Part shown: in pieces, positions 3,022 through 37,566 of the stretch
Layout of the letters: each line of letters opens with the position of its first letter
Position numbering within the stretch: position 1 is the first letter of the stretch
From: an uncultured Pseudomonadota bacterium
Lineage (GTDB): Bacteria; Pseudomonadota; Alphaproteobacteria; Rs-D84
Length of the DNA: 64,000 nt
Assembly (NCBI GenBank): GCA_902801125.1
Contig: CADCGT010000002.1
Span: forward strand, 7,157-71,156
Direction: 5' to 3'
Program-made: the position numbers and the translations under genes
Notes under the pieces: generated by a model
What the model was told of the DNA's origin: nothing
What the model saw: the letters and a program-made list of their open reading frames with translations, nothing else
Database searches by the model: none

Positions 3022-3504
3022 ATGAGCAAAAAATTACTTTTCGCCATAATCGCGACAATTTGCACCACCACCGCATTTGCAGATACCAAAACCGTCACCA
3101 CCAAGGATTATGTGGATACCGCGGACGCATTAAAGCAAGATAAAATAGTCGGACATACACAATACCGGCCCGATTCTGTTATAACAGATACCACAAATGA
3201 TGGCGTGCTGGGTAAACGTTTAACTTTGGGTAGTGATCACTGGCTTACCCCCGAGTTTTGGGCAGCTTATTTGGAAGCTGGGTCACTTACGCAAAATCCA
3301 AATGAAGATGTGCAAGAGATGGTAGAAGATGGAGAATTTACTTATGATGATTTGAGAAAATCGTTAGTCCAGGCAAATGTTTTGGAAATCGCATTATCAA
3401 GACTTACTAGCACAATAAATTTGAAACGTATGACCTGTGCGCGGTATGTTGAAAATGCCGCCCAAACGGCCGAAAATTGCCTGCTGTGGAACGTGGTGCA
3501 ATAA
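3022..3504 (+). CDS. Secreted protein, 'KTVTT-YVD / CLLW' family paralog 1
   Basis: Signal peptide MSKKLLFAIIATICTTTAFA, motif DTKTVTTKDYVDTADALKQDK, C-terminal ENCLLWNVVQ. Paralogous to 35438-35986 and 36094-37566. RBS AAGAGGGAA. Confidence 0.7.
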   Translation: MSKKLLFAIIATICTTTAFADTKTVTTKDYVDTADALKQDKIVGHTQYRPDSVITDTTNDGVLGKRLTLGSDHWLTPEFWAAYLEAGSLTQNPNEDVQEMVEDGEFTYDDLRKSLVQANVLEIALSRLTSTINLKRMTCARYVENAAQTAENCLLWNVVQ

Positions 3505-3572
3505 AACGCCGACGAATGTTTTATCATAATACCAAAAACCACCGCTTTTGCGATGGTTTTTATTGTGTGTAT

Positions 3573-3600
3573 TGACAAAAATAAATTTATGTATTATAAT
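3573..3600 (+). promoter_or_regulatory. Near-consensus sigma70 promoter TTGACA-N16-TATAAT
   Basis: TTGACA at 3573-3578 and TATAAT at 3595-3600, directly upstream of the HNH-motif gene. Confidence 0.5.
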
Positions 3601-3622
3601 TTTGTCAAACAAAGGGATTATA

Positions 3623-4669
3623 ATGCGTAAAATGTGTATTTTTTGCGGGCATCGGCCGGTGGACAAGAATAAAGAACATGTTATTCCGCAATGGTTAATA
3701 CGTGAAACCGGTCGGACAAAATCCCCAATTATTGATACACCGGATAAAAAAATTCCGTTCTTGGCGTTTACTATGCCGGCGTGTACGGCGTGCAATGAAC
3801 GGTATTCCAAAATGGAATCCGACGCGCAATCGGTAATGCAGAAAATTTTGGGCGGTATGTCAATAACCGCACCGGAAATCAACACATTGCTTGATTGGTT
3901 TGACAAGGTTCGCGTGGGCCTTTGGCTGGCGAACGCGTATTTGAATCCGCAAAAGTACGATTTTCAACCCAAAATTGCCATAGACACACGTGTCGGCAAA
4001 CTGGACCGCGCATTGGTCGTGGAAAAGATAGATATGCCGGCATCCGACAAGGGAATTTTAATTGAAGGCATTTATTCGCCGATATTCATATATTCTCCGT
4101 CGGTTTTTCAAATGTTGATAAATAATTATTCTTTTACCAGTGCATCGTGTGCAAACCTGGTATCAAACAGGTTGGGTTTCCCGGTTATAAGCAATGTCAC
4201 ATTGGTGTCGGGTGGTCGTACGCATGGTAATTTGTGCCCCGGCCGTGAAAAAGTGACACACCCCGTTATCAAAGATTTTGCACCGTCGGATAACCAGATT
4301 ATTTTATATCAACCGATTTTTTCTCAATTTCAAAAATCGCCACTGTGCCAAACAAAATATGTTCAAAAATACTCTTTGGACCATAATGCAGGTTTGGGCG
4401 GAATATTCTATCAACGCGGTGCAAATTCACCGGTTGTGTATATGTCGGGCGATGATAAAATCCGCCTGAATCCGCGACCATATCCCGATGATGACGCAGA
4501 ATTGGATAAAATATATAAACGTATGTATAACCTGCAAATTGCGGTAAATAATATGCCCATACGTTTCGATACGGGTGATACCGTGGCGGATGCGCAATAC
4601 GCGTTTTTGCGGAAATGTAAATCAGATTTAGTTGCAAATTATGTTAAAGATAATTTTAACGGCCGGTAA
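3623..4669 (+). CDS. HNH-motif nuclease-like protein with a ~300-aa C-terminal extension of unknown function
   Basis: N-terminus CIFCGHRPVDKNKEHVIPQWL (CxxC...EH.IP, HNH-like) and a second CTACN pair. The rest is unrecognised. Single gene with its own promoter. Confidence 0.55.
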   Translation: MRKMCIFCGHRPVDKNKEHVIPQWLIRETGRTKSPIIDTPDKKIPFLAFTMPACTACNERYSKMESDAQSVMQKILGGMSITAPEINTLLDWFDKVRVGLWLANAYLNPQKYDFQPKIAIDTRVGKLDRALVVEKIDMPASDKGILIEGIYSPIFIYSPSVFQMLINNYSFTSASCANLVSNRLGFPVISNVTLVSGGRTHGNLCPGREKVTHPVIKDFAPSDNQIILYQPIFSQFQKSPLCQTKYVQKYSLDHNAGLGGIFYQRGANSPVVYMSGDDKIRLNPRPYPDDDAELDKIYKRMYNLQIAVNNMPIRFDTGDTVADAQYAFLRKCKSDLVANYVKDNFNGR

Positions 4670-4826
4670 TATACGATTTTCCTTGATTTTTCAAAATAAA
4701 TGGTATAGTATGGCATCCGCTGGATAATATTTCAGGACTGATTAAGGCGCGGTGCGTTTTGGTCCCGCGGTCGATAAGGTTCCTGTCAAACGTCCGGCAC
4801 AATAAAAAACCAAAAGGATTATAAAA

Positions 4827-5459
4827 ATGGCAAGAGATGGGGCAAAACGTAATACCCGTAAATTGAAAATTGGCCGCCGGTTGGGTGTCAACCTGTGGGG
4901 CCAGGCAAAATCACCGTTTAACAAACGCAAATATAAACCGGGCCAGCATGGACCAACTTCGCGTGGCGGCAATATGACCGATTACGCAAAACAGATGCGT
5001 GCAAAACAGACCCTGAAAGGTTATTATGGCAATATCGGTGAAAAGAAGTTCCGTGCATATTATCTGGAAGCGGACAATATGAAAGGCGATACACCGGATA
5101 ACCTTATCGGTTTGTTGGAACGCCGTTTGGACGCGGTTGTATATCGTGCGAAATTTGCACCGACGGTTTTCTCGGCACGTCAGTTGGTAAGCCACGGTCA
5201 TATCTATGTCAACGATAAACGCGTGAAAATTGCATCTTACCAGGTTAAACCGGGCGATGTTATCACGGTAAGTGACAAGGCAAAACAAATGCCGTTGGTC
5301 GTTTTGGCGTTGGAATCGGGCGAACGCAATACACCGGACTATATCAATGTGGATTCTGCGAACTTTGTCGCAACATACACACGCGTTCCGGCATTTGCGG
5401 ATGTTCCGTATCCGGTCCAAATGTCCCCAGAATTGGTCGTCGAATTTTATTCACGTTAA
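4827..5459 (+). CDS. rpsD: 30S ribosomal protein S4
   Basis: [25 protein letters not shown]...KPGQHGP..., S4 N-terminal and S4-domain signature. Confidence 0.95.
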
Positions 5460-5480
5460 TTTTGGAACGCAAAATTCAGA

Positions 5481-5505
5481 ATCCGCCGTTTGGCGGATTT
5501 TTCTT
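5481..5505 (+). terminator. Rho-independent terminator after rpsD
   Basis: ATCCGCC-gttt-GGCGGAT followed by TTTTCTTTG. Confidence 0.6.
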
Positions 5506-5533
5506 TGATTTTCAATTCAATTCGTTGTATAAT
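5505..5533 (+). promoter_or_regulatory. sigma70-like promoter TTGATT-N17-TATAAT for trpS
   Basis: Hexamers at 5505-5510 and 5528-5533. Confidence 0.45.
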
Positions 5534-5560
5534 AATGCAAACAAAATAAAAGATTACAAA

Positions 5561-6565
5561 ATGTCAGATAACAAGATTTATTTGTCGGGGATAAAACCCA
5601 CTGGAACCGTCCATTTGGGCAACTATATTGGTATGCTGAGCCAAATGCGCGATATATCGCACGAACACAAAACGGTTATGTTTATTGCGGATTTGCACGC
5701 GTTGAATATTATGCGCGATGCGAATGCTGTGCGTGAACACACATACGAAATCGCCGCGATTATTATGTCTATGGGTTTTAATATGAACAATGTTTTAATG
5801 TTCCGCCAATCGGATGTGCCGGCCGTGTGCGAATTGTCAACAATGCTGACCAATGTCACGCCCAAGGGTTTAATGGATCGCGCCCATTCGTATAAGGCCG
5901 CGGTTGATAAAAACATCTCCGCCGGAAACGATACGGATTTGGGTGTGAATATGGGACTGTACACATATCCTATTTTGATGGCGGCGGATATATTACTGTA
6001 TAATTCCGATATTGTGCCCGTCGGTGCCGACCAAAAACAACATGTGGAATTTGCGCGTGATATTGCGGGACATTTCAATACAATATACGGCAATGTGTTC
6101 CGGTTGCCCGAACCCCAGATTATGCCAGATGCCGGAATTATACCGGGATTGGATGGCCGGAAAATGAGTAAATCTTATGATAACATCATCCCACTTATGG
6201 CGCCAAGTGCCGAATTGAAAAAGCGTATTATGCGCATAATCACCGACAGCAAAACACCCGACGAATCCAAAGACCCGGATGAATCTACGATATATATGCT
6301 TTATCGTCATTTTGCAACCGCGGCGGAATCGGCCGATTTGGCGGAAAAATTCCGCGCCGGCGGTATGGGATATGGCACGGCGAAGACAATCCTGTTTGAA
6401 AAATTGGATTCTGTGTTATCACCAATGCGGGTCCAATATGAATATTTAATGGCGAATAGCAATGAATTGGACGATGCGTTGTCGAACGGTGCGGAAATCG
6501 CGCGCCGTATCGCGGACAAGACCATGACACGCGTGCGCCATGTAATGTTGGGAACAAAAAAATAA
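5561..6565 (+). CDS. trpS: Tryptophan--tRNA ligase
   Basis: GIKPTGTVHLGNYIG (HIGH-type) and KMSKS. Start at the internal ATG 5561. Confidence 0.95.
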   Translation: MSDNKIYLSGIKPTGTVHLGNYIGMLSQMRDISHEHKTVMFIADLHALNIMRDANAVREHTYEIAAIIMSMGFNMNNVLMFRQSDVPAVCELSTMLTNVTPKGLMDRAHSYKAAVDKNISAGNDTDLGVNMGLYTYPILMAADILLYNSDIVPVGADQKQHVEFARDIAGHFNTIYGNVFRLPEPQIMPDAGIIPGLDGRKMSKSYDNIIPLMAPSAELKKRIMRIITDSKTPDESKDPDESTIYMLYRHFATAAESADLAEKFRAGGMGYGTAKTILFEKLDSVLSPMRVQYEYLMANSNELDDALSNGAEIARRIADKTMTRVRHVMLGTKK

Positions 6566-6586
6566 ATAAAAAACAAGGAGAGAGCA

Positions 6587-7315: not shown

Positions 7316-7316
7316 A

Positions 7317-8228: not shown

Positions 8229-8392
8229 AATTAAATTGACTTGTTTGTGCATCTGTGCAAAAATAGAAACATGACAATAAGGTTTATAAATTTTTACTGT
8301 TGTTGTTAAATTGTTTTTCTGCAAACATATTGTTTGCGTATTCTGTGTGATTTTGTTATTATAACCATTACGAAAAATATAAGGATTTTGTT

Positions 8393-25856: not shown

Positions 25857-26414
25857 ATGGCAGATAACGATAATTTTGAAGAAAAAGAAATACAATCTGA
25901 TGACCCAATGATCCAAAAATGTTTGGATATTATCCGTGATAAAAGGGCCTGGGTGGAAGATTTATGTGATAATGGTATTTACAGTGTATATATTGGTAGG
26001 AAAAAATATTTTCAAATTCAGAGATGTTATAATAGTGGTACGAAATACAATATAGACATAAACTACCAAACTTATAAGTTTTATGGGTCACGACCGGATT
26101 TGGAAGAATTGTATAGGTTGTGTAATTCTAAATATGCCGACAAATCAAAAGAAAGACAACAAAACGCACTTGATTTTTTGCGTACCAAGGAAAGTACCAA
26201 GGAAAGATGCAGAATAAAACCTGGGGTGCTTTTTATGATTGCGGGAATACTGGTCATGGCTGCAGCGATTGTGAAATATCAAAAAGACCAAAAAACGCAA
26301 CGCGTGGAAGAAAAAGTTAAAGCATATGAAAAAACTCTGCCGGCGGATTATTTGGAATATAAACAGGCGGTTGAACACTATCGCGACAGTTTAATGCACG
26401 CCAAAGGCCGGTAA
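25857..26414 (+). CDS. Orphan operon gene 1, hypothetical protein with one C-terminal TM helix
   Basis: ORF with RBS AAAGGAT. TM segment GVLFMIAGILVMAAAIV. AT-rich, AGA/AGG Arg codons. Confidence 0.5.
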   Translation: MADNDNFEEKEIQSDDPMIQKCLDIIRDKRAWVEDLCDNGIYSVYIGRKKYFQIQRCYNSGTKYNIDINYQTYKFYGSRPDLEELYRLCNSKYADKSKERQQNALDFLRTKESTKERCRIKPGVLFMIAGILVMAAAIVKYQKDQKTQRVEEKVKAYEKTLPADYLEYKQAVEHYRDSLMHAKGR

Positions 26415-26430
26415 ACAAAAAAGGAATAAA

Positions 26431-26826
26431 ATGCCAGCGCAATCGATAAATGAATACACTGAAATGATGTCTGAACCCGGGGTTAGCGTTTCCAAGGTCG
26501 ACCTGGGGGATTTTTGTGGCTTTATGGATGACCGGCGGGACAACAGTTTTATTATATCCAAAGATGGCGAAAAAGTATTCGGTATTCGGAATTCGCACAT
26601 ATACTTTGGCCGCATTATTAGAATCAAAATGAACACTATCACTTTGTATGATCCGCACGACTATCGGTCTTTGGTGACCAAGCGGTTCGGTCAAAATGGT
26701 TATAAAGAACTGTATAAATTGCAACGTGCGGTGGAAAATATCTATACAAAACAAAATGAATACGAAAAATCCAATATGTCGGATGTTCGTGGTCAGATGT
26801 TTCGGCATGATAACGGTCGGCAATAA
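26431..26826 (+). CDS. Orphan operon gene 2, hypothetical protein
   Basis: ORF 16 nt after gene 1 with RBS AAAGGAATAAAATG. Confidence 0.45.
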   Translation: MPAQSINEYTEMMSEPGVSVSKVDLGDFCGFMDDRRDNSFIISKDGEKVFGIRNSHIYFGRIIRIKMNTITLYDPHDYRSLVTKRFGQNGYKELYKLQRAVENIYTKQNEYEKSNMSDVRGQMFRHDNGRQ

Positions 26827-26838
26827 AAAGGATAAAAA

Positions 26839-27264
26839 ATGAATCAAACTGACAAGAAAACCGTGGTAACATTGACCAATATTCCACAGGGTTTGGGTGA
26901 ACGAACGAAATTGAATTGTGGCGAAATAACCGAAAAACAGAAACAAGATTTCTTGGCCTCAATTATGCGCTTTGACCCAGAATCAACAAATTTTGCCAAT
27001 CATTGTGGGTTTAATTTGTATTATGATAAATTTAATGCTTGGGTTGCTCCGTTTGGTATGAAAAGGAACTATAAACCACAATATCGCAGAAATGGTGACA
27101 AAGAAATGGTAATAGAAACCATGCCTATGAAATCCCCAGAATGCGGTGCATATGAAAAAAGCGAATGTCCAAAATATTTAGCAGACGGCAAATGCACATC
27201 GCCATTGGTTAAACGGACCGTTGGTGCACTGTTGTTCCCCGATAAATATGGGAAAGAAAGATAA
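26839..27264 (+). CDS. Orphan operon gene 3, hypothetical Cys-containing protein
   Basis: RBS AAAAGGATAAAAAATG. Cys pairs CGEI..., ECGAYEKSECPKYLADGKC. Confidence 0.45.
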   Translation: MNQTDKKTVVTLTNIPQGLGERTKLNCGEITEKQKQDFLASIMRFDPESTNFANHCGFNLYYDKFNAWVAPFGMKRNYKPQYRRNGDKEMVIETMPMKSPECGAYEKSECPKYLADGKCTSPLVKRTVGALLFPDKYGKER

Positions 27265-27282
27265 AAATAAAAGGATAAAACA

Positions 27283-27897
27283 ATGCGATTACAATCATCT
27301 GTTCATTTTGAGATTTTTTCCGAGCTGTTTTATTTGAAAAATATATCCGACCAGACTGGATACAAGCAGCTGTTGACACCGGCATCACGCAGAGCCTCCA
27401 TAGCCGCGCAATTACGTGACGGCACATCAAAACAACCCCAGGACCTGTTGGAATCTGTCCGCGATTTTTGTTTGCATATTGCGACAAGTGCCGAAGATTC
27501 CTTTTACCTGGACAAACTGACATACTTGGTTAAATTGTATCGCAAGGTTAGAATTGCCGATACTGATGACAAAGAGTATTTTCAACATCATGATTTTAAT
27601 GGTGACAAATTTGAATTTATACTGGCCACAAATGATAAATTGATATACCCACGCGATATTAAAAGTGCTTTGCGTGTCCCATTTTATTTTAGCAGCATTA
27701 TAAGCGATAAAGAATTAAAGTCGGATACCCCAGTATATATAGAAAAATATGACACACATAATGCCGTTGTGCGACCATTGACAATGCAAGATAGGGTCGT
27801 TGATAAAAATTTGAACCAAATTTGGCCACTGGATACAAGAGAAACTCCAATGGGGTTAAAGAAATTGCTAGAACAAACAACCGAAAAAGTGAGATAA
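27283..27897 (+). CDS. Orphan operon gene 4, hypothetical protein
   Basis: RBS AAAAGGATAAAACAATG. Confidence 0.45.
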   Translation: MRLQSSVHFEIFSELFYLKNISDQTGYKQLLTPASRRASIAAQLRDGTSKQPQDLLESVRDFCLHIATSAEDSFYLDKLTYLVKLYRKVRIADTDDKEYFQHHDFNGDKFEFILATNDKLIYPRDIKSALRVPFYFSSIISDKELKSDTPVYIEKYDTHNAVVRPLTMQDRVVDKNLNQIWPLDTRETPMGLKKLLEQTTEKVR

Positions 27898-27928
27898 CCA
27901 ATACGGTAAAAAATAAAAAGGTATTAAA

Positions 27929-28381
27929 ATGAACGATAATGAAGTAAATAAACTTATTCGTTATATATTAGAACATAAGCCACCAAAGTTTCGTCTGCGC
28001 ATAGAATATTTAGGAAAAGAAGTATCAAGAGCCGAACTTTTCGATATCGCGTATCCATTTAGGTATAATGATAGCGTTTTGCATTTAGGTAAAAAAATAA
28101 AACTGTCTTTTAATATGCTTGACACGTGTCAACGTTGTAAAGATGAAATCAATATAATGACATCTTTAACTAAATCAGATGTTGCATCAGAATTACTGCA
28201 ACATCACACCATTCAACCGGGCAATTATAGTATGGATGCAGATACTAAGAAAATGGTGATCAAGGCGTTTATACAGCAAAAGAACAAAGACATTCGTATC
28301 AGAAAATTTCAAGACGGGATCTATGCTGTGTTTCATCAGTTGGCGCACTTTGGTAAAAAAGCACAAACAAATAATCGATAA
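27929..28381 (+). CDS. Orphan operon gene 5, hypothetical protein
   Basis: RBS AAAAAGGTATTAAAATG. Confidence 0.45.
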   Translation: MNDNEVNKLIRYILEHKPPKFRLRIEYLGKEVSRAELFDIAYPFRYNDSVLHLGKKIKLSFNMLDTCQRCKDEINIMTSLTKSDVASELLQHHTIQPGNYSMDADTKKMVIKAFIQQKNKDIRIRKFQDGIYAVFHQLAHFGKKAQTNNR

Positions 28382-28399
28382 AAAAAAAGGAAAATAAAA

Positions 28400-29020
28400 A
28401 TGTCTTATTGGTTTTGGGATGATTGTGGTGGTATGTCGGATTTTCAACAGGAGTATGTTGCGGCATTCCTGGATGGTAAAATGCCCGATTTAATGAACGA
28501 AATTATGGAAACCGCCAACAAGTTCAACAATGATGTTTGTAAAAATGATGTCCGTAAATCTGATATTCCAAATACAGAATACATAACAATAAACGCCAAT
28601 GGTATCTTTGTTGGTGGTAAACCATCGACACATTATCGTGGTGAAAAAATAAAGTCCTCGGACTTGGCAATTAGCATTTTTGGTTCCATACAAAGAGAAA
28701 TCAATCCAAATGTTCAAGAATTACATGTTTTGTCATCTGAAACCAGGGGGCATCGTGCGCAAACTGGGAAACCAAGTGCTGAACCTGGCGAAAATGCATG
28801 GTATCGTGTGAAATTTAATGATGGAACAATATCTGATTGGGTTTATCTTTCATCACAAGGCAGTGGCCCAAGTTGTGCACGAATTTGTGCATATATTTGT
28901 GCAGATGATGCCCGCTATGGCCACCAATTTCTTCCTGTAGAAAAGCCGGAAGAAACAATGTCCGCTTGCGAAAGAATAAAAAGATTTTTTGGTAAAAAAA
29001 CAACCGAAATTTCGCGATAA
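28400..29020 (+). CDS. Orphan operon gene 6, hypothetical protein
   Basis: RBS AAAAGGAAAATAAAAATG. CARICAYICADD Cys cluster. Confidence 0.45.
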   Translation: MSYWFWDDCGGMSDFQQEYVAAFLDGKMPDLMNEIMETANKFNNDVCKNDVRKSDIPNTEYITINANGIFVGGKPSTHYRGEKIKSSDLAISIFGSIQREINPNVQELHVLSSETRGHRAQTGKPSAEPGENAWYRVKFNDGTISDWVYLSSQGSGPSCARICAYICADDARYGHQFLPVEKPEETMSACERIKRFFGKKTTEISR

Positions 29021-29034
29021 TAAAAAGGCAACAA

Positions 29035-29940
29035 ATGTCGAATTCGTATGATAAACATGTCTATAGGGTTAAGTCGGATGAAGAAATGGCAAAGATCGCG
29101 GCCAAGGCCGAGGAAGAATTTCGCGATCAACAAACAATCGAACTGAATAAAGAATTGGACCGGCATAAAACCGAACTCGATCAATTGCCGGAAATATTTC
29201 GTGTCCGAATTGGTGCCTTGCAAGAAGTCAACCCAGAAAAATTTTCGGATTGCCCCGAACTTACCCTGGCCAGTTTGGCGGCCGCGCGCCTGGTTCGGAG
29301 TTTGCCGGACAAATTCCGGGATATTTCAAACACATATTATAACGAGGTTATTTTTGAATATGGGATATTGTGGGACGTTATCAAACCGAACGCGGTATCA
29401 AAATTGGTGTATGCATATCGCGATGATGTAAAAAGCGGCGCAATTGATAAAAATGGTAATGTTAAAAATCTGACAAAATCCAAAGTTATGACACTATGTC
29501 ACGATTCCGAAGAATACGGCCGGCCGTGTGATGCCAATGGTGTGTATTTTCGGTTTAACTGTAAAAAGCCAAAATCGGGAATAACCCTTAAACAAATTAT
29601 TCGCAGTCATATACGACCATACAAATACTATTCCGATGATAACAAACTGGTTGGATCCTATGTCATGCATATGCCGAATGAATTTGATGGGCGACCATGG
29701 CCCAGTATAAAATTTACCCCATCTGTTGGAACGTATGTCGAAACCGCGGTTGGTGCATCAATTCAGATATCGTACGATTATCAAACCAATGTTTGGATGG
29801 TGTTCCGTGGTGTGCAAATCGATGTGCCGTATAAAACCAAACCCAGCGAGATTGAGGCAATTGTTGATAAATACCTTAACGCATGGCATCAATTGGTGGC
29901 GACACGTGGGCATCTTGTCGCCGCAGATTATAGCGATTAA
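29035..29940 (+). CDS. Orphan operon gene 7, hypothetical protein
   Basis: RBS AAAAAGGCAACAAATG. 301 aa, no recognisable motif. Confidence 0.45.
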   Translation: MSNSYDKHVYRVKSDEEMAKIAAKAEEEFRDQQTIELNKELDRHKTELDQLPEIFRVRIGALQEVNPEKFSDCPELTLASLAAARLVRSLPDKFRDISNTYYNEVIFEYGILWDVIKPNAVSKLVYAYRDDVKSGAIDKNGNVKNLTKSKVMTLCHDSEEYGRPCDANGVYFRFNCKKPKSGITLKQIIRSHIRPYKYYSDDNKLVGSYVMHMPNEFDGRPWPSIKFTPSVGTYVETAVGASIQISYDYQTNVWMVFRGVQIDVPYKTKPSEIEAIVDKYLNAWHQLVATRGHLVAADYSD

Positions 29941-29961
29941 ACAATATGAAAGGAAAATAAA

Positions 29962-30729
29962 ATGATGGATAAAACAAATTCAAAAACAATTCCAACACCA
30001 TTGTTCGAGGCATCTACGGCATACAAACGTCTGTGTGGCTTGCAATGTGATATTAAAAACAATGATGTATATGGGCTTTATGTTTATATGCGTGGCGATG
30101 GGGTCGCGTTGGTGCAAGACAAAGATACCGATTTAGGGGTTGAACAATATCATTTGGCCAATGGGGATTATTGCGACAAATATTACAATTTATTGTGCCA
30201 GGTCAAAGATTATGAAAATTTTTTGATTTCCGAGGTTAATGAAAACGCCAAAATAGCCAGCATTATGCCCAAAAATATTGATATATTTAACAAAGGATAT
30301 AACCCCAATGAAACAACATCGTGGCGCAGGTCGCGTTGCATTTTTCGATTTGGCAACCCACAAATGGTGCCATTGAATGTATTTGGCGGATACAATCCGA
30401 TAGTTATACAAAAAGATAGTGCCGATTTGATCGGGATTGGCGAATGTGTTCCTGTATTCAAAACGGTCATAGTTTGTAAAAACCAACCGGATTATTATGT
30501 GTATTTGATAAAATTGATTGATTCCATTCATGCCGGGGCCGGCACTTATGCAAAACGCCCCTGTATTCACATTTCGTTATTTGATAACAGGGAAAATGCG
30601 GATGCATACAAAGAATATATGGACTCGGAATCTGAAAAATTTCAAAACTATCCGATGTATCCGGACATTGAAAAACAGTGTTATCCCGCCCTGCAACGGT
30701 TCGATAAATATATGGGCAAATCGCGGTAA
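29962..30729 (+). CDS. Orphan operon gene 8, hypothetical protein
   Basis: RBS GAAAGGAAAATAAAATG. Confidence 0.45.
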   Translation: MMDKTNSKTIPTPLFEASTAYKRLCGLQCDIKNNDVYGLYVYMRGDGVALVQDKDTDLGVEQYHLANGDYCDKYYNLLCQVKDYENFLISEVNENAKIASIMPKNIDIFNKGYNPNETTSWRRSRCIFRFGNPQMVPLNVFGGYNPIVIQKDSADLIGIGECVPVFKTVIVCKNQPDYYVYLIKLIDSIHAGAGTYAKRPCIHISLFDNRENADAYKEYMDSESEKFQNYPMYPDIEKQCYPALQRFDKYMGKSR

Positions 30730-30742
30730 AAGGAAAACAAAA

Positions 30743-31495
30743 ATGGCAGAAGCTGCAAAGAAATTCTTGGAACAATATGGGCTGGACAAATTGCCACGAA
30801 TTGACGGTAATTACGCAAAGTTTCGGGGCAAATACGTCTTTATGTTGCACGATTATGCACCAATATCTCAATCGATACTGCATGGCGGTAGCGGTAGAAT
30901 TGGTGTTAAACGCATGGAAAATTTTTGGTCCTTGGTGGCGAACGGTGCACGCGTGGTGGATGGCATATTTATCTCCACCCCATGGTCAATCGAAGACCCT
31001 TTTCAAAGACGTTTGGGAGAACCAAAAAAAATAGATACAAATTATGTGATATATACTATGAAAGCTATCAAGAATGATAATTGGATTGATGTGCCACATG
31101 GATTTGCGAAAGACCCATACGATAAGACCTTTATGAAACACATGCGGGATGGCGACCGTGCAACATTAGAAAACATAATTATTCATGAACGGGATAAAGA
31201 AGGTTGGTGGGATTTTAACGAACGAAAAAAGTGGTGGGATTACGAAAAATCCAAGATCAAATCAGCACTGTTATTAGATGGTTTTGATGTGTTTGTTTGG
31301 GCAACGACTTTGTTGGATGTTGACCCAAAGGCAACACTTAACCTTTTGCGTTATGCTAGCACAAAAATGCCATGTTTCCTGGATTCTGGTTTTGAACATT
31401 ATTATGATGACAACAGTCAATGTGAACCATATATTCCTAACAAAGTCAGGGTAACCGTATATCTTGGTACAGAAATTGTGGACCAAAGTCGTTGA
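30743..31495 (+). CDS. Orphan operon gene 9, hypothetical protein
   Basis: Start chosen at MAEAAKKF with RBS AAAAGGAAAACAAAAATG. The longer track ORF (30518) overlaps gene 8. Confidence 0.45.
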   Translation: MAEAAKKFLEQYGLDKLPRIDGNYAKFRGKYVFMLHDYAPISQSILHGGSGRIGVKRMENFWSLVANGARVVDGIFISTPWSIEDPFQRRLGEPKKIDTNYVIYTMKAIKNDNWIDVPHGFAKDPYDKTFMKHMRDGDRATLENIIIHERDKEGWWDFNERKKWWDYEKSKIKSALLLDGFDVFVWATTLLDVDPKATLNLLRYASTKMPCFLDSGFEHYYDDNSQCEPYIPNKVRVTVYLGTEIVDQSR

Positions 31496-31521
31496 TTTTT
31501 AACAACAAAAAAGAGATAAAA

Positions 31522-31803
31522 ATGGCAAAAGAAATTGAAATGGAACCTTTGTATGAACGGGATTATAATTTGCCCCAAGACACATATGTTTGTTCGGCTA
31601 CTGGGTTGGTATGTGAAAAGGTATCACAACATTTTCGTGAATATCGTGCATTTATAGAACACTTGTCTGAAACAAATGATAACAGATTATTTTTACAAGG
31701 TGAACCAAATTTGTGTATTGATCCGGATTATTTTGGTCGTTGCACTGTTTATGATAATGTTATGAAAAAAGTTGCCGAGCTCGCCAAAAACAAAGGTCGT
31801 TAA
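31522..31803 (+). CDS. Orphan operon gene 10, hypothetical small Cys-containing protein
   Basis: Start at MAKEIEME with RBS AAAGAGATAAAAATG. Confidence 0.4.
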   Translation: MAKEIEMEPLYERDYNLPQDTYVCSATGLVCEKVSQHFREYRAFIEHLSETNDNRLFLQGEPNLCIDPDYFGRCTVYDNVMKKVAELAKNKGR

Positions 31804-33286: not shown

Positions 33287-33287
33287 T

Positions 33288-33458: not shown

Positions 33459-33461
33459 TTT

Positions 33462-33926
33462 TTACTCCGTATAAATTATGTTCGAATCGAAATCAACCGT
33501 TGCGCCACGGAAAGAAACCATGTCACCGTTGTCCAGTTCCATAATATCGCCGGCACCAAAGTTTTGAAAGCACACAACGCGTCCCAATATTTCCCCGTCA
33601 CGCACAACCGTCATCCCAACCAGGTCCGCCTGGTAATATTCGCCATCTTGGGCCGCGGGCAAAGAATCGCGCATTATGAACAATTCGGTCCCGCGCAGTG
33701 TTTCCGCCGCATTTCGGTCGGTAATTCCGTCAATTCGTGCAATAATAACATTTGTGTTTGGAACCTTGCGCACAAAGTGAAACGCGGACGCATCGATATT
33801 ATTGCCGAATACCGACAATTTTTTGAAATCGTCCGGTGCGGCGGTAAAGGCCTGAACGCGCACTTCGCCCCGTATTCCCTGGGCTGCGACGATTTTTCCA
33901 ACCAAGATTTGTTTATTGTTTTTCAC
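33462..33926 (-). CDS. rimM: Ribosome maturation factor RimM
   Basis: ILVGKIVAAQGIRGEVRVQAFTAAPDDF (RimM N-terminal beta-barrel) and the PRC-barrel C-terminus. Confidence 0.85.
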   Translation of the reverse strand: MKNNKQILVGKIVAAQGIRGEVRVQAFTAAPDDFKKLSVFGNNIDASAFHFVRKVPNTNVIIARIDGITDRNAAETLRGTELFIMRDSLPAAQDGEYYQADLVGMTVVRDGEILGRVVCFQNFGAGDIMELDNGDMVSFRGATVDFDSNIIYTE

Positions 33927-34185
33927 GGTGCTTTTTCTTTAACCAGGTTTTATATCGGGCACAATCAAACCCTTCTTTGTTTATGTTCGGGCATTCGGCA
34001 AAGAAATCTTTGCCGGGCGACACAAACATACTTTCCCGAAAACGTATGCTCAAACTTTCGGCCAATTTTTTGCGTGCATCCAATTCGTATTGGAATTCGG
34101 GGCAATGCGCCCGATCATACGGGCAAATATGGTCGCGAATTTGTTCTGGGGTTGGGTCCGACATATCAAAATCCTTATCGTTCAT
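33913..34185 (-). CDS. Hypothetical Cys-rich small protein inserted between rpsP and rimM
   Basis: HICPYDRAHCPEF...ECPNINKEGFDCARY. Overlaps the rimM start. Confidence 0.4.
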   Translation of the reverse strand: MNDKDFDMSDPTPEQIRDHICPYDRAHCPEFQYELDARKKLAESLSIRFRESMFVSPGKDFFAECPNINKEGFDCARYKTWLKKKHREKQ

Positions 34186-34423
34186 GCACGCCGGGCATTT
34201 TTAACAATGTTTCCCGGATGGCCAGCAAGTAATCCAGTTCATCAATACGGTTTTTGTGTGCATATTGCATCATAGGCCAAAGGTTTATAAAATAACTATC
34301 GCGCATAATACGACCAAAATCAACATCATCGAATTTGACAGAATCAAATACGAATCCCAACGCCTTTTGACGCAGGCGCGACGGATATTCATGATATGGT
34401 TGCCTATGCGCGATGTTATTCAT
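34175..34423 (-). CDS. Hypothetical small protein inserted between rpsP and rimM
   Basis: 82-aa ORF on the operon strand, 14 nt from the rpsP stop. Confidence 0.4.
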   Translation of the reverse strand: MNNIAHRQPYHEYPSRLRQKALGFVFDSVKFDDVDFGRIMRDSYFINLWPMMQYAHKNRIDELDYLLAIRETLLKMPGVHER

Positions 34424-34436
34424 ATTTCAAACCCAA

Positions 34437-34874
34437 TTATTCTGCCGCTGCGTCACTGGCCGGGGCTTCTGCGGGTGCTTCGGCTGCGGCTTTGGCGGCT
34501 TCTTCTGCCTTGGCTTTTTCTTCGGCTAACTTGGCCAATTTATCGGCTTTGTCTTTAATTTTCTGTAAAGTTTTTTCGCTTTGCAGGTTTTTCTTGGTCT
34601 GGTTCGGCACAACGCGTTTCGCGACCAATCCGGCGTTGGCAAGGAAACGATACACACGGTCAGACGGCTTTGCGCCCTTGGCCATCCAAGCCTTGATTTC
34701 ATCGATTTTCAAAATAACGCGTTTTTCATTATCGCGTGCCAACATTGGGTCATATTTACCAACGACTTCCAGGACATTACCGGAATTACGCGCCACACGT
34801 GAATCGACCACAACGATGTGGTAATACGGGCGTTTTTTTGCACCATGACGTGCCAAACGAATAACAGTTGCCAT
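34437..34874 (-). CDS. rpsP: 30S ribosomal protein S16 with Ala/Lys-rich C-terminal extension
   Basis: MATVIRLARHGAKKRPYYHIVVVDSRVARNSG... Confidence 0.95.
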   Translation of the reverse strand: MATVIRLARHGAKKRPYYHIVVVDSRVARNSGNVLEVVGKYDPMLARDNEKRVILKIDEIKAWMAKGAKPSDRVYRFLANAGLVAKRVVPNQTKKNLQSEKTLQKIKDKADKLAKLAEEKAKAEEAAKAAAEAPAEAPASDAAAE

Positions 34875-35062
34875 ATTTGCTCCTTTTGGGTTTGTTAAAA
34901 CTGTTTTTTATCCACAAAGAAAACCGCCATCAAGGGTGAAACTCACCGGATGATGTTCCTTGTGCATACCGCACACAGGTTTTATTCAAATGGCAATCTT
35001 TGGGATTTGCGCGTCCATTATGCGCCACAAATATTAAAAAGTCAAGTATTTTCACAAATAAT

Positions 35063-35089
35063 GCGGGGCGAATTCCCCGCACACTAACC
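35063..35089. repeat. GC hairpin GCGGGGC-gaatt-CCCCGC followed by CACTAACC, the same module as at 44078-44108
   Basis: Direct comparison of the two loci. Confidence 0.5.
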
Positions 35090-35127
35090 CATTGTCGCGA
35101 CGGAGCACACAAAATGTGCGTAGACGG

Positions 35128-35150
35128 AACTAACACTAACCACTAACACT
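35128..35150 (-). repeat. Tandem hexamer repeats AACTAAC ACTAAC CACTAAC ACT (reverse complement of TTAGTG repeats)
   Basis: Direct reading. Sits immediately 5' of the leader promoter -35 element. Confidence 0.6.
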
Positions 35151-35156
35151 TTTCCC

Positions 35157-35186
35157 TTGACGCCGAATCGTGTTTTTTGTTAGAAT
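35157..35186 (+). promoter_or_regulatory. sigma70-like promoter TTGACG-N18-TAGAAT (leader copy 2)
   Basis: Aligned with the 2752-2780 copy, including the CCCTTGAC box. Confidence 0.4.
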
Positions 35187-35437
35187 GTGTTTGAACCAAT
35201 GGGAAACCATTCTCGGTTCGGGCTGTCGTAGGCCCACATCTTGGACGGCACGCAATTTTTTTGGGTGTGCCAAATACCCCGCCTGTCGGGGTGCCGATGG
35301 TTATAATGCGCTGTCAAAAGGCCTATCGGAATCAAATTCCAAGATGTGATTTACGAACACCCCGACCGTCATGGATTCCACGACGGTTTATTTATACACA
35401 AAACAATCCCGCACGGGGGGAAGGAGAAAAACAAGCA
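35187..35437 (+). promoter_or_regulatory. Conserved structured 5' leader (copy 2) ending in a hairpin (35365-35387) plus U-rich tract before the RBS
   Basis: Same conserved blocks as 2781-3021. Terminal hairpin ACCGTCatggattccacGACGGT followed by TTTATTTAT. Confidence 0.45.
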
Positions 35438-35986
35438 ATGACAAATCACAAAATTCTATTATTTGGCGCGGTTCTGTCCGCTTTGACAATTGATACATTT
35501 GCGGTGACAAAAACCGTCACGACCCAGGGTTATGTTGATAACGCGGTCGCCACGAAACAGAATAAATTATCGGGTTCATCCGGCTATGCCGTCACATACG
35601 GATCAAGCGCGGGTACAACGGATGAACGGCAAATCGTAACATCACTTGGGTCGGATACGACGGCGACGACATTGCCGACAACGGGTGCGGTTGTGTCGGG
35701 CCTGAACGCGAAACAAAATACATTAAACGGTGCGGCAAACACGGTTATTACATATACCGGCACGGCGGGCGGCACCGGTTCCAAGGGCGTGTACCAGGCA
35801 TCGGGTTCTTACAGTTCCCAGACAAATAGTTTGGCCGAGGCCGGACATGTCAACACGGCGGTTGCGAACGCGTTTAATGAACATTTAACATGCAATACAT
35901 ACGCAACACCCGGGGATACGACCAGTGATTGTTTGCTCTGGAATGTGAACACATTGTCGGGAACATATATGCCGCAAAACCAGTAA
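35438..35986 (+). CDS. Secreted protein, 'KTVTT-YVD / CLLW' family paralog 2
   Basis: Signal peptide MTNHKILLFGAVLSALTIDTFA; AVTKTVTTQGYVDNAVATKQNK; ...SDCLLWNVNTL. RBS GGGGGAAGGAGAAAA. Confidence 0.7.
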   Translation: MTNHKILLFGAVLSALTIDTFAVTKTVTTQGYVDNAVATKQNKLSGSSGYAVTYGSSAGTTDERQIVTSLGSDTTATTLPTTGAVVSGLNAKQNTLNGAANTVITYTGTAGGTGSKGVYQASGSYSSQTNSLAEAGHVNTAVANAFNEHLTCNTYATPGDTTSDCLLWNVNTLSGTYMPQNQ

Positions 35987-36093
35987 GCGTGGCCATGTCA
36001 CCCCGCGGACGCGCGGGGCCCAGTGCGAGCAAAGCGAACACCAGTGTTGGCGCCGGCGTATAAAATGAAAGAGAGAATAAAAGGACAGAGAAT

Positions 36094-37566
36094 ATGAAAC
36101 TATCAAAATACGGTTTTAATGTTGCATTGGTTTTATTATTGGTACCGGGAATCGCCCGTGCAGAAAATCCCGACCTTATGACGCTTATCGGCGCCAGCGG
36201 CGAGGCCGACACATATGCGGCACGTGACAACAATGGGGAGGATACGAACGACAACGCATCAACATACGGATTAAGTTCATCCGACCATAATTCATTTGCG
36301 GTTGATTACGGCAACAGCGGTATCGTACGTGGTCATGGCCGTTGCAGCACGCGTGCGGGCGATTCTGGGACGTGGAATAATGACACATACAATGTAATAT
36401 CCGGTAATTTTGTAGATAGCTTAACCGATGAAACGGGCCAAAGCGGTGCACAATATTGCTATTGCCAATTGGACAGTTATACGGCCTCTGGTGGTTCTGC
36501 CCAGGCTTTGTCTGGCCCGTGGGTGTTCCGCAGTGACGACGAGGACGCGGACACTTGCGCGGACGACTGTGCGCTCGACTGTGCGGATGCCCTGATGTTC
36601 GGCGGCGCGGACGGTCTCGCGTTCCGGGCTGCAATGTTTAATGCCTATGCGCCGGCGGGCGGGGCCAGTGGTGGCAGTGCGGTGACGACACAAACCTATG
36701 TTGATAATAAATTGGCGACAAAACAGGCGCGGATTACCACCACCGGCACAAATAAACTTATGACATACGGTGCATCCACGGGCGCGACCCCGGGTTCGCG
36801 TGATATTGTGACCGCGCTTGGCACATCCACCACCGCAACCACTGTGCCAACGGTTGGCCCAATCGTCACGGCCGTAAATAATAAACAAGACGCGGTCAAC
36901 GGCACAGCGGACTATGTTATGACCGGCACCGGCACGGCCGGCACACTCGGTGAAAAACCGGTCTACAGTGCCAGTGCACAATTGTCGACCGCCCTGGTAA
37001 CCGCCCAGACGATAAATACGGCGGCAATGGACGCGGCCAACAGTGAAATGATGTGTCATTCCTATGTTGCCAACGCATCTCAAACCCCGGAGAATTGCCT
37101 GCTGTGGGAAATAAAACAAAGTATTTCTAAACCGTTGCAATCGTATTGGCAAAATCCGTCGACACCATACACAAGTTCTTGTTATCGTAAGGCATATGGT
37201 AATTATACAGAAGGCGGTATAGCACGTAATGATCAGAATGGTAATTGTAGCAGTGCAACTGTATCGTATCTTGGGGCATTGAACAACAAAAGTGGTAAAT
37301 GGGGCACTGTTTTCCCATATGGTGATATAAGCGGTGTAAGTAAATGTGTTAATTATATTGCCAATCCTGGTATTGCGACAGATGAGCAAATTAATTCGCA
37401 GTCTACGGGCGGGGTTTGTTGGTGCAAGATGCAAAATCCGATAGTTTCAAAATGGGCGATCGGCATGAGTTATGGAAATCTTACCAATTGTAATAAGGTA
37501 TGTGCAGGGACGTGCGCCGCACTTCAACCATCGTATAGAGAAGTTATGTACAGCACAATAGAATAA
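36094..37566 (+). CDS. Secreted protein, 'KTVTT-YVD / CLLW' family paralog 3 with extra N- and C-terminal Cys-rich domains
   Basis: Signal peptide MKLSKYGFNVALVLLLVPGIARA. Internal VTTQTYVDNKLATKQARI...PENCLLWEIKQ domain alignable to paralogs 1 and 2. Confidence 0.7.
   Translation: MKLSKYGFNVALVLLLVPGIARAENPDLMTLIGASGEADTYAARDNNGEDTNDNASTYGLSSSDHNSFAVDYGNSGIVRGHGRCSTRAGDSGTWNNDTYNVISGNFVDSLTDETGQSGAQYCYCQLDSYTASGGSAQALSGPWVFRSDDEDADTCADDCALDCADALMFGGADGLAFRAAMFNAYAPAGGASGGSAVTTQTYVDNKLATKQARITTTGTNKLMTYGASTGATPGSRDIVTALGTSTTATTVPTVGPIVTAVNNKQDAVNGTADYVMTGTGTAGTLGEKPVYSASAQLSTALVTAQTINTAAMDAANSEMMCHSYVANASQTPENCLLWEIKQSISKPLQSYWQNPSTPYTSSCYRKAYGNYTEGGIARNDQNGNCSSATVSYLGALNNKSGKWGTVFPYGDISGVSKCVNYIANPGIATDEQINSQSTGGVCWCKMQNPIVSKWAIGMSYGNLTNCNKVCAGTCAALQPSYREVMYSTIE

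Follow-up and report, generated by a model that had tools for sequence, protein, structure and literature searches.

The 64-kb window (the whole stretch of DNA that was analysed) carries three paralogous genes, P1, P2 and P3, which encode predicted exported proteins sharing a capped tandem-repeat array. P1 and the P2-P3 operon each follow a predicted sigma-70-type promoter and a structured leader common to both. The protein family is undescribed and uncharacterised, and has so far been seen only in the gut and rumen Rs-D84 / 'Candidatus Enterousia' group. The leader is an undescribed structured RNA, supported by covariation.

All three genes are on the forward strand, where a first-pass annotation had placed them: P1 at 3022-3504 (160 aa), P2 at 35438-35986 (182 aa) and P3 at 36094-37566 (490 aa). 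BLASTP related P1 to P2 (E=1e-12, 29% over 175 aa), P2 to P3 (E=3e-22, 46% over 147 aa) and P1 to P3 (E=4e-8, a match confined to the cap described below), a homology far above chance. A six-frame motif scan and a repeat HMM found exactly these three family members in the 64 kb, and the HMM detected no repeat copy in any other open reading frame of the window. A shared domain of about 180 aa had been proposed at first pass; the homology is real, and it corresponds to a repeat array of about 145 aa (P2 aa 27-170, P3 aa 197-340), not to a globular domain of that size.

This common unit reads as a tandem array closed by a cap. The first repeat is opened by the start motif VTTxxYVD..KQ.K; P3 has SAVTTQTYVD at this point, so that only VTT-x-x-YVD is common to the three proteins and the longer string first proposed is not. 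Each repeat comprises about 42 aa forming a helix and a beta-hairpin, and the repeat HMM counts one copy in P1 and two each in P2 and P3. P2 is the bare unit: repeat 1 (aa 29-70, 35522-35647) and repeat 2 (aa 81-122, 35678-35803), which match each other in hhalign (probability 95.5%, E=4.7e-9), precede a third, diverged helix-hairpin of pattern C-x12-14-C-L-L-W. This cap (aa 133-170, 35834-35947, with C152 and C165-LLW168) is followed by a conserved 12-aa tail, near-invariant in P2 orthologs as W-NVN-x-LSGTY-x-P. The unit has no cysteines besides the two in this cap, the conserved C-terminal cysteine noted at first pass proving to be a pair, and the two would form a disulfide outside the cytoplasm. 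The strings IVT[SA]LG..TTATT[LV]PT.G..V and TGTAG..G.K.VY.AS, described earlier for P2 and P3, are present in their BLASTP alignment. P1 (start motif aa 25-32, 3094-3117; single repeat aa 27-66, 3100-3219; cap C139...C153-LLW156, 3436-3489) shares with P2 and P3 only the start motif with the opening of the first repeat, and the cap; its acidic, helical middle is unrelated to theirs and cannot be aligned with them. In the AF2 model of P2, helix and hairpin recur three times, with pLDDT of 79-94 over aa 41-100, and the last hairpin has C152 in one of its strands and C165 just ahead of the other. Because model confidence is moderate for P2 (mean pLDDT 69), below 50 for the same unit within P3 and lowest at the unit's most conserved ends, the capped-array picture leans mostly on sequence logic.

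P3 is a capped-repeat unit with one Cys-rich globular module on each side, as the first reading had noticed. Module A-N (aa 27-184, 36172-36645) precedes the unit (aa 197-340, 36682-37113; repeats aa 199-242 and 253-294; cap C321...C335-LLW338), and module A-C (aa 354-490, 37153-37563) ends the protein. Both modules are modelled by AF2 with pLDDT of about 90. The N-terminal module is found in more than 70 other proteins, some of which also carry PF09479 (InlB B-repeat); from such modular occurrence, one may guess that the Cys-rich modules are binding heads.

Re-analysis of the N-termini agrees with the cleavable signal peptides first assigned and predicts a classical (type I) Sec signal peptide for each protein (P1 aa 1-20, 3022-3081; P2 aa 1-22, 35438-35503; P3 aa 1-23). 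A basic n-region is followed by a hydrophobic core (10-residue Kyte-Doolittle maximum 2.5-2.9) and by small residues at -3/-1 of the predicted cleavage sites (AFA|D, TFA|V and ARA|E, respectively). Across 72 family members, Ala at -1 and a start motif immediately past the cleavage site are conserved. The mature proteins contain no second hydrophobic segment (19-residue maximum <=1.12). The first-pass term 'pilin-like' has to be given up: the proteins show an AxA-type Sec site and a polar mature end, and they lack both a class III prepilin signal and its hydrophobic alpha-1 helix; Pfam returned no fimbrial domain for them, and no chaperone/usher or pilus-assembly genes adjoin them. Other secreted fibre-like genes of the window, at 49560-52901, match PHROG tail-fibre families via collagen-like runs.

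No homology to a well-characterised family emerged, as searches of Pfam, NCBIfam, PHROGs, PDB, phages and plasmids gave no significant match for the proteins. At E<=1e-3 the relatives number 775 cluster representatives, of which 591 pass E<=1e-10; the 150 listed are between 110 and 1,243 aa long and have as many as 9 matched stretches. All 20 P1 homologs are hypothetical proteins. Of the 203 motif-bearing proteins, 149 have the start motif within aa 20-39, and members devoid of extra modules usually have exactly two cysteines. Three relatives (P0198, P0213 and P0199) display a signal peptide, the start motif, repeats and then the cap 3-4 residues from the C-terminus. Every named relative stems from a MAG of uncultured Alphaproteobacteria ('Ca. 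Enterousia', order Rs-D84), the loci being titled 'Candidatus Enterousia sp.' or rumen Alphaproteobacteria MAGs. Genomes of this group measure about 0.75-1.0 Mb and lack the TCA cycle and respiration, and a partner-dependent lifestyle has been proposed for these bacteria (PMC12306168).

Regarding the upstream regions, the promoter scan predicts TTGACC-17-TAAAAT with an upstream TG ahead of P1 (2752-2780, forward strand, 10/12 matches) and TTGACG-18-TAGAAT, also with an upstream TG, ahead of the P2-P3 operon (35157-35186, forward strand, 10/12 matches). The -35/-10 arrangement of the former is kept upstream of the leader in related loci, and the latter is conserved in L001-L004 and L132. The leader follows on the same strand, at 2781-3003 (MFE -92.2 kcal/mol, z = -6.7) and at 35186-35400 (MFE -86.7 kcal/mol, z = -5.5). 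Both window copies, of 215-223 nt, have a 5' hairpin, a long closing helix around three hairpins (a four-way junction) and an intrinsic terminator, detected by the terminator scan at 2970-2995 with a T-run in the first copy and folding as a hairpin at 35364-35388, then TTTATTTAT, in the second. In an alignment of 8 sequences from about 5 lineages, 28 of 58 pairs show compensatory changes on both sides, and 91.4% of cells are paired, compared to 38-49% when the partners are slid; none of 500 shuffles reached the observed value. None of the 4,227 Rfam families matched the leader, even at E<=10. In both window copies, the 3' arm of a junction hairpin can instead fold onto the 5' arm of the terminator, and an equivalent pairing, read by eye from the sequence, occurs in L010 (GGTTGGAGG/CCTCCAACC); this putative antiterminator pairing appears to covary. 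The folded leader would favour termination (OFF), and a ligand or factor would shift the balance. Every leader copy found in a scan of 24 related loci lies directly upstream of a small family gene. Leader control is not obligatory for the family, since orthologs L136, L138 and L142 are devoid of the leader and L144 has a different upstream element.

Within the 107-nt gap between P2 and P3, the promoter and terminator scans flagged neither element. The gap (fold of 35987-36093) contains a GC-rich hairpin at 36002-36017 on the forward strand, lacking a T-run, which may be a processing or stability element and not a terminator. As P3 has neither promoter nor leader of its own, it is most likely co-transcribed with P2, and therefore all three genes would be under leader control; the co-regulation first proposed for two of the three, on the leader common to P1 and P2, is thus widened. 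The operon is closed by a predicted intrinsic terminator (37588-37605, forward strand; terminator scan: 7-bp stem with 5 G-C pairs, then GTTTTTAT). A small bare gene with a larger module-bearing gene directly after it is a conserved arrangement in at least 11 related, paralogous loci (L002-L005, L008-L010, L132, L136, L138 and L143). In the syntenic locus L004, identities are 97% for S16, 94% for GDH, 90% for RimM, 86% for P2 and 46% for P3, whose counterpart there has lost its N-terminal module; by this comparison P3 evolves fast, much faster than its neighbours.

Taken together, these data are best explained by exported capped-repeat proteins acting as surface stalks or adhesins and switched by the leader RNA, a whole to which we give an even chance. 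The adhesin or surface antigen suggested at first pass is plausible through family expansion, variable repeat number, fusion to modules that sit elsewhere with InlB B-repeats and fast P3 evolution, all of which bear on it indirectly. The repeat array would be an elongated stalk or scaffold and the Cys-rich modules its binding heads. P2 and P3 would act jointly, for instance as a stalk subunit with a head-bearing one, or as one envelope-anchoring unit in its free and its loaded version. The proteins would build or decorate a cell-surface structure, giving this partner-dependent bacterium contact with other cells or with host material.

Alternatively, the proteins may never be surface-exposed and act inside the envelope as structural spacers, chaperone-like or stress proteins, which we consider unlikely. 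In a diderm, a Sec signal by itself predicts delivery to the periplasm, the window showed no surface-export machinery, and the neighbourhood of the genes no system for outer-membrane secretion or anchoring; after cleavage, the proteins are small, with an acidic pI of 4.5-5.5. P1 aa 129-156 also gives a sub-threshold HdeA/HdeB match (E=0.0034; 18.1 bits, cut-off 22), but this match spans 28 residues around the Cys pair and falls under the curated cut-off. An envelope-internal role further accords poorly with members of up to 1,243 aa and many repeats, with fusion of the unit to modules co-occurring with InlB B-repeat surface domains, and with a P3 that far outpaces its neighbours and shuffles domains.

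Rather unlikely, too, are pilus- or fibril-like subunits that polymerise, each docking its conserved N-terminal strand onto its neighbour's C-terminal disulfide cap. P2 would supply the major subunit and P3 a minor or tip subunit bearing the adhesin, by analogy with the major pilin and two-domain tip adhesin of chaperone-usher pili. Conserved ends around a variable middle, the small gene kept in an operon with the head-bearing large gene and the near-invariant tail past the P2 cap would suit such subunits, and a need for a partner in folding would account for conserved ends that are modelled worst and a unit left unmodelled in P3. However, there is no prepilin signal, hydrophobic alpha-1 helix or Fimbrial or N_methyl Pfam match, and chaperone, usher, sortase and pilus ATPase genes are absent near every copy examined. 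The P3 start motif is internal, leaving no free N-terminus, and long members carry many repeats per chain between one start motif and one cap, an arrangement easier to reconcile with capping within the chain than with exchange between subunits. It is very improbable that the proteins are phage tail-fibre or receptor-binding proteins domesticated from a prophage remnant or tailocin: the Thr/Ser/Gly/Ala-rich composition, the repetitive architecture, the fibre-like genes at 49560-52901 and BFVD Foldseek matches to a 'minor tail protein gp31 C-terminal domain' (top match, E=0.011, probability 0.89) and to tail fibre, tail-collar and Mtd N-terminal proteins (E>0.5) point that way, but no BFVD match reaches E<=0.001, PHROGs matches (E>=0.0078) are to families of unknown function, a tblastn search of 50,697 phage records with P2, P3 and a 1,004-aa relative as queries gave no match, phage fibres lack the Sec signal peptides present here, and all loci lie amid housekeeping genes with no phage morphogenesis genes.

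Among known systems, capped solenoids come close, for example the LRR proteins with LRRNT/LRRCT caps such as internalins and variable lymphocyte receptors. Such scaffolds serve in binding, either secreted or at the surface, and frequently carry other modules; in them a conserved start and a Cys-stabilised C-cap bracket a variable number of 20-29-aa alpha/beta repeats. The window proteins likewise place a variable number of short alpha/beta repeats between a conserved start and such a cap, with module fusions and a secreted or, presumably, surface location; by contrast, their repeat is of about 42 aa (one helix and one beta-hairpin), and they have no LRR Pfam match or confident solenoid model. 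YadA-family trimeric autotransporter adhesins, Sec-exported in Proteobacteria, and phage tail fibres are likewise repetitive, fibrous proteins rich in Thr/Ser/Gly/Ala whose body varies while one end is conserved, and the weak BFVD matches are enriched for tail proteins, but the YadA_anchor beta-barrel and Hep_Hag and HIM repeats are missing from P1, P2 and P3, as are phage sequence matches, and the genomic context is housekeeping. Chaperone-usher Fim/Pap operons for a major subunit and a tip adhesin also set a small subunit gene beside a larger one combining the subunit domain with putative binding modules, and a C-terminal Cys pair is a further likeness of the window proteins to pilins, including the type IV pilin D-region; here, P2 is predicted to be mixed alpha/beta and not Ig-like all-beta, and Fimbrial/N_methyl domains, prepilin signals and nearby chaperone, usher or assembly genes are lacking. 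PF09479 (Flg_new, the Listeria-Bacteroides repeat of gut-bacterial surface proteins) is absent from the three proteins and unrelated in sequence to their capped-repeat unit, yet its fusion to the P3 Cys-rich module in related genomes indicates a pool of surface-protein modules in common. Finally, although it matches nothing in Rfam and so far precedes only this one protein family, the leader resembles terminating (OFF) riboswitches and 5'-leader attenuators in its promoter-proximal multi-helix junction followed by an intrinsic terminator, its covariation-supported helices and its putative, mutually exclusive antiterminator pairing.

Three paralogous ORFs with cleavable signal peptides had been proposed by the first-pass annotation, and both points were borne out. 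All three genes lie on the + strand, P1 at 3022-3504 (160 aa), P2 at 35438-35986 (182 aa) and P3 at 36094-37566 (490 aa), and each is preceded by a purine run resembling a Shine-Dalgarno sequence. Pairwise BLASTP related P1 to P2 (E=1e-12, 29% over 175 aa), P2 to P3 (E=3e-22, 46% over 147 aa) and P1 to P3 (E=4e-8), the last through the C-terminal cap only, and no further member was detected in the 64-kb window by a six-frame motif scan and the repeat HMM. The signal peptides are of the canonical type I Sec class, with a length of 20-23 aa, one or two Lys/Arg within the first six residues, a hydrophobic core reaching 10-residue Kyte-Doolittle maxima of 2.5-2.9 and small residues at positions -3/-1 of the cleavage sites AFA↓DTK (P1), TFA↓VTK (P2) and ARA↓ENP (P3). 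No membrane-spanning segment follows the signal peptide in any of them (19-residue hydropathy maximum <=1.12). A lipoprotein reading of P1 (…ATIC…) was rejected because position -1 holds Ile and orthologs do not retain the Cys.

The homology of the domain common to the three proteins also held, but the proposed size of ~180 aa was too large, the common unit comprising ~145 aa. Likewise, VTT-x-x-YVD is found in all three proteins whereas the rest of the start motif initially quoted is not common to all. In its central part, P1 is not related to the other two proteins. An alignment of 72 sequences revealed two conserved blocks flanking a variable middle, the first directly after the signal-peptide cleavage site (T28, Y32, V33, D34, K40, Q41) and the second in the C-terminal region (C152, T162, C165, L166, L167, W168). 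Residues 29-70 and 81-122 of P2 are tandem repeats (hhalign probability 95.5%, E=4.7e-9; consensus TTGYVDTALATKQDKLSGTSGYVVTYTGTAGTTGSRQIYTSL), so that the start motif simply opens repeat 1. The repeat HMM found two copies in P2, two in P3 and one in P1 (E=3e-5). The AlphaFold2 model of P2 (mean pLDDT 69, 79-94 over aa 41-100) presents a helix followed by a β-hairpin three times: helix 30-40 with strands 50-54 and 61-67, helix 82-95 with strands 102-106 and 113-118, and helix 135-148 with strands 150-153 and 167-170. Since the last helix-hairpin repeats the same element, the CLLW block is best read as a diverged third unit. In the model, C152 lies within one strand of this last hairpin and C165 just ahead of the other, so that a C152-C165 disulfide could staple the hairpin of the third unit. 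It should be noted that P2-type proteins carry after the cap an almost invariant tail of 12-14 aa, W-NVN-x-LSGTY-x-P-x-N (window 35942-35983, aa 169-182 of P2, and orthologs), unlike P1-type and long members, which stop 3-4 residues past the cap; one possibility is that this tail serves for docking or sorting in the gene-pair subfamily only.

When 1.84 billion cluster representatives (50% clustering) were searched exhaustively with a profile, 775 family members were recovered at E<=1e-3, of which 591 reached E<=1e-10 and 108 reached E<=1e-30. The 150 matches listed are between 110 and 1,243 aa long and contain as many as 9 separately matched stretches. Three long relatives, P0198 (1,004 aa), P0213 (723 aa) and P0199 (543 aa), display the same order: a signal peptide, a T(V/I)TTxxYVD start, many repeats of the pattern '...IPTxGAV..L..KQ.KIPA....VVT....G.V..R.I...' and a cap, '...KQ.K..C..W....T..NC(L/W)LW..P(D/E)', with the stop codon 3-4 residues later. 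When 327 family proteins were considered, the start motif was located at aa 20-39 in 149 of the 203 proteins bearing it, and the cap ended 0-4 residues from the C-terminus in 54 proteins and 10-19 residues from it in 68, the latter being of the P2 type with its conserved tail. Most of the remaining proteins have other domains after the cap (at least 50 residues follow it in 54), and members devoid of extra modules usually contain exactly two cysteines. With one start, n repeats and one cap, the unit thus looks like a capped tandem-repeat array.

The homologs are unnamed or 'hypothetical protein' entries, all from metagenome-assembled Alphaproteobacteria, and the related loci, retrieved with an alignment of 16 close sequences as query, bear titles such as 'MAG: Candidatus Enterousia sp.' or are rumen 'Alphaproteobacteria bacterium' isolates. 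Ca. Enterousia (order Rs-D84) is common in the guts of ruminants, horse, chicken and human; its genomes of 0.75-1.0 Mb lack the TCA cycle, respiratory chain, flagella and most biosynthesis, and these bacteria are thought to depend on partner cells, probably as obligate symbionts or parasites according to the authors (PMC12306168).

P3 differs from its paralogs in carrying extra Cys-rich N- and C-terminal modules, as initially annotated. After the signal peptide come module A-N (aa 27-184, window 36172-36645), a Gly/Ser linker, the unit (aa 197-340) and module A-C (aa 354-490, window 37153-37563). Both modules contain the pattern CS...C(W/Y)C...W...C-x3-C-x3-CA...R, with K/Q after C(W/Y)C. They are linked through orthologs, P3 27-184 matching the C-terminal module of P0064 (E=1e-18) and P3 354-475 the N-terminal module of P0101 (E=2e-14); the direct comparison of A-N with A-C gave E=0.11. 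In the AF2 model of P3 both modules reach a pLDDT of ~90 and the repeat unit stays below 50, and neither Foldseek (E>=1) nor sequence profiles matched P3 to a PDB entry. Module A-N is also part of over 70 other proteins, which measure 290-700 aa and in some cases carry PF09479 (Flg_new / InlB B-repeat) as well. The Cys-rich module, also found in P0106-P0176, is thus confidently modelled yet without a PDB relative, and merits its own family definition.

The P2-P3 arrangement recurs: at L002, L003, L004, L005, L008, L009, L010, L132, L136, L138 and L143, a small gene encoding the bare unit is followed ~15-180 nt downstream by a larger gene in which the unit or its start motif is joined to module A, and P1-type genes are solitary. 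At the syntenic Enterousia locus L004, identity to the window is 97% for S16, 94% for GDH, 90% for RimM and 86% for P2, but only 46% for P3, whose counterpart at this locus has lost module A-N. The head-bearing partner is thus evolving far more rapidly than the genes around it. The neighbouring S16 protein (34437-34874, - strand, 145 aa) has a Lys/Ala/Glu-rich C-terminal extension of ~55 aa, also kept at 97% identity in L004.

Near-consensus promoters with an extended -10 element precede P1 (2752-2780, + strand) and P2 (35157-35186, + strand), a promoter upstream of the leader being kept in relatives, and each is followed on the same strand by a structured leader RNA, of 223 nt ahead of P1 (2781-3003, z = -6.7 vs shuffled) and of 215 nt ahead of P2 (35186-35400, z = -5.5 vs shuffled). 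Both leaders are built alike, with a 5' hairpin, a ~22-bp closing helix, three junction hairpins and an intrinsic terminator (2970-2995, then TTTT, in the P1 copy; 35364-35388, then TTTATTTAT, in the P2 copy; both + strand). RNAalifold on eight natural copies gave 58 pairs, of which 28 show compensatory double changes. In this structure 91.4% of cells are paired, compared to 38-49% when the partners were slid by 1-3 columns, and none of 500 shuffles matched any observed measure. The distal part of the closing helix is formed by entirely different sequences among copies: CACATCTTGG / CCAAGATGTG in the P2 copy, ATGTGTATC / GATACACAT in the P1 copy, TGAAATAC / GTATTTCA in L133, GTACTCGG / CCGAGTAC in L010 and ACTATC / GATAGT in L143.

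The 3' arm of junction hairpin P4 (GTCGGGGTG) has alternative partners, namely the base of the closing helix together with the terminator's 5' arm. This alternative pairing is GUCGGGGUG : CACCCCGAC in the P2 leader and is longer in the P1 copy, it appears once the 5' part is omitted from the fold, and the L010 leader follows the same logic (GGUUGGAGG : CCUCCAACC). The folded junction should therefore favour termination. With a covarying structured domain coupled to a terminator and a mutually exclusive alternative pairing, the leader shows two features of a transcription attenuator or riboswitch-like element, a functional class in which switching depends on a ligand or factor. Attenuation through a leader peptide was rejected because the P1 copy does not preserve the in-frame ORF upstream of P2 (35261-) and contains stop codons in its place. 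No Rfam 15 family matched the leader (only chance-level matches, E>=1.3), a tRNA being the sole RNA to pass its thresholds in the whole window, and motif searches allowing up to 3 mismatches detected no third copy in the window. The spread of the leader among taxa and genes is judged from nine natural copies only; the leader 15-mer AACACCCCGACCGTC matched 120 metagenome loci, which are chance matches because the second leader core is absent from all of them.

The first-pass annotation had placed two of the three genes behind a common leader, which was confirmed for P1 and P2. No promoter or leader specific to P3 was detected. Nothing but a GC hairpin lacking a T-run lies in the 107-nt gap between P2 and P3, and P3 is followed by a terminator (37588-37605, + strand). 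P2 and P3 therefore very probably form one operon, which would bring all three genes under the control of the leader. Not all orthologs keep the leader, those at L136, L138 and L142 having short 5' UTRs. Leaderless paralogs, including a P1 relative with 63% identity at L144, carry two copies of the palindrome AAA(G/C)GTAC(C/G)TTT, one over the -35 region and the other ~80-170 nt upstream (L005 3860-3957, L006 3928, L009 3932, L011 3838, L135 2766-2948, L139, L140, L144). This pair looks like an operator pair for a transcription factor; the palindrome does not occur in the window, even with 1 mismatch.

Other genes of the window deserve mention. Directly 3' of P1, ORF 3548-4669 (+ strand, at most 373 aa) has a CxxC...EHVIPQWL motif and no Pfam match; a perfect consensus promoter, TTGACA-17-TATAAT, lies at 3572-3600 within its annotated 5' end, so translation probably begins at the ATG near 3623. 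Four consecutive exported ORFs of 698, 412, 524 and 808 aa, devoid of Pfam matches, occupy 49560-56913 on the - strand. Short collagen-like G-x-y runs occur in the first three, along with Cys-bracketed modules and long Ala/Thr/Ser-rich 'S-S-T-Y-x-T-K' repeats, and two of them match PHROG tail-fibre families through their collagen-like parts (E=5.5e-10 and 4.5e-7); the fourth is large and Cys-rich. This genome accordingly encodes a second class of secreted, fibre-like proteins. Finally, about ten tandem ORFs at 25857-31803 (+ strand) have a G+C content of 0.38-0.39 vs ~0.45 elsewhere. They have neither signal peptides nor Pfam matches, their sole PHROG match is a weak one to a family of unknown function (E=0.0044), and nearly all end with a basic ...(G/S/K/N/V)R C-terminus (KGR, GRQ, KER, KVR, NNR, ISR, KSR, QSR, KGR). 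Possible readings are a foreign island or a group of effectors with a common C-terminal signal.

Taken together, these results point, with a confidence that we would put no higher than even, to an exported, disulfide-capped tandem-repeat stalk or scaffold family, in which P2 is the bare unit, P1 a short solitary version and P3 the unit with two putative binding heads; P2 and P3 might cooperate. The proteins would be used on the envelope or surface of a partner-dependent cell, and their production would be gated by the riboswitch-like attenuator. As the family is expanded and exported, with members of varying length, a fast-evolving headed member and dedicated regulation, it is a concrete candidate for the contact apparatus of Rs-D84 bacteria. 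Databases would gain a sizeable unannotated family with a clear start-repeat-cap grammar, a second, Cys-rich module that is confidently modelled but without match in the solved-structure searches run, and a well-supported structured RNA missing from Rfam. If the leader responds to a ligand, it would reveal the signal controlling surface remodelling in an obligate symbiont. The repeat grammar, the bare/headed gene pair and the strongly covarying leader together provide a testable lead.

The type I Sec signals are also compatible with P1-P3 being purely periplasmic; given the long, many-repeat family members and the fast-evolving P3, we consider this unlikely. We regard as slightly more doubtful that the proteins are pilus-like subunits polymerising head-to-tail with P3 as the adhesin. 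The conserved C-terminal Cys pair, 12-14 residues apart, recalls the D-region disulfide loop of type IV pilins but is not by itself diagnostic, and the 'pilin-like' label of the first-pass annotation did not survive comparison with either pilus class. Type IV pilins and pseudopilins have a PilD-cleaved class III signal (a short basic leader with Gly as its last residue, followed by Phe/Met(+1) and Glu(+5)) and a hydrophobic mature α1 helix of ~20-25 aa, whereas P1-P3 have type I signals, polar mature N-termini (DTKTVTTKDYVD, VTKTVTTQGYVD) and no N_methyl Pfam match. Chaperone-usher subunits are all-β proteins with an Ig-like Fimbrial (PF00419-type) domain, whereas P1-P3 have no such Pfam match at E<=1 and the predicted structure of P2 is mixed α/β, with alternating helices and hairpins; moreover, no gene for a periplasmic chaperone or an outer-membrane usher lies beside P1-P3 or at related loci, their neighbours being the ribosomal S16 gene, rimM, trmD, gdh, a P-type ATPase gene and the ribosomal S4 gene. 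A bolder version of the stalk reading, which we judge a long shot, is that the unit builds a previously unknown surface filament or stalk of reduced-genome, partner-dependent Alphaproteobacteria, P2 polymerising or stacking and P3 contributing Cys-rich binding heads whose fold has no solved relative, its production being switched by a new riboswitch class sensing a partner-cell metabolite or signal.

Trimeric autotransporter adhesins were discarded, as neither a C-terminal YadA-like β-barrel anchor nor Hep_Hag or HIM head or stalk motifs were detected by Pfam and NCBIfam in P1-P3 or ten long relatives, and the proteins stop 3-14 residues past the Cys cap. That P1-P3 are domesticated phage tail fibres or receptor-binding proteins is very improbable: tail proteins are enriched among the weak, non-significant BFVD Foldseek matches of the P2 model, a moderately confident monomer (best E=0.011, TM 0.25; none at E<=0.001), but PHROGs gave no tail family, tblastn no match to phages, and the context is housekeeping, the rest of the window being ordinary chromosome (P-type ATPase, S4, TyrRS/CysRS, TrcR, RpoD, UvrD, RecN, S16-RimM-TrmD, GDH, PFK, DnaK, DnaE). 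Nor did P2 match a plasmid collection by tblastn. Pfam, NCBIfam and PHROGs scans of P1-P3 and the long relatives returned nothing usable: HdeA/HdeB (PF06411) matched P1 only, over 28 residues and at 18.1 bits for a cut-off of 22, with no match in P2 or P3, and the sub-threshold HdeA, ACT_PSP_2, cEGF and atadenovirus fibre head matches were short or under cut-off. The sole 'significant' PDB profile rows, to designer pentatricopeptide proteins, are a repeat artefact (per-domain E 0.07-4) since the alignment runs through the recurrent VVTY/helix periodicity. None of the libraries searched contained a match to the protein family, to the Cys-rich module or to the leader RNA. The general kinds to which they belong are familiar, namely secreted repeat or adhesin-like families confined to one lineage, and structured leaders coupled to a terminator.
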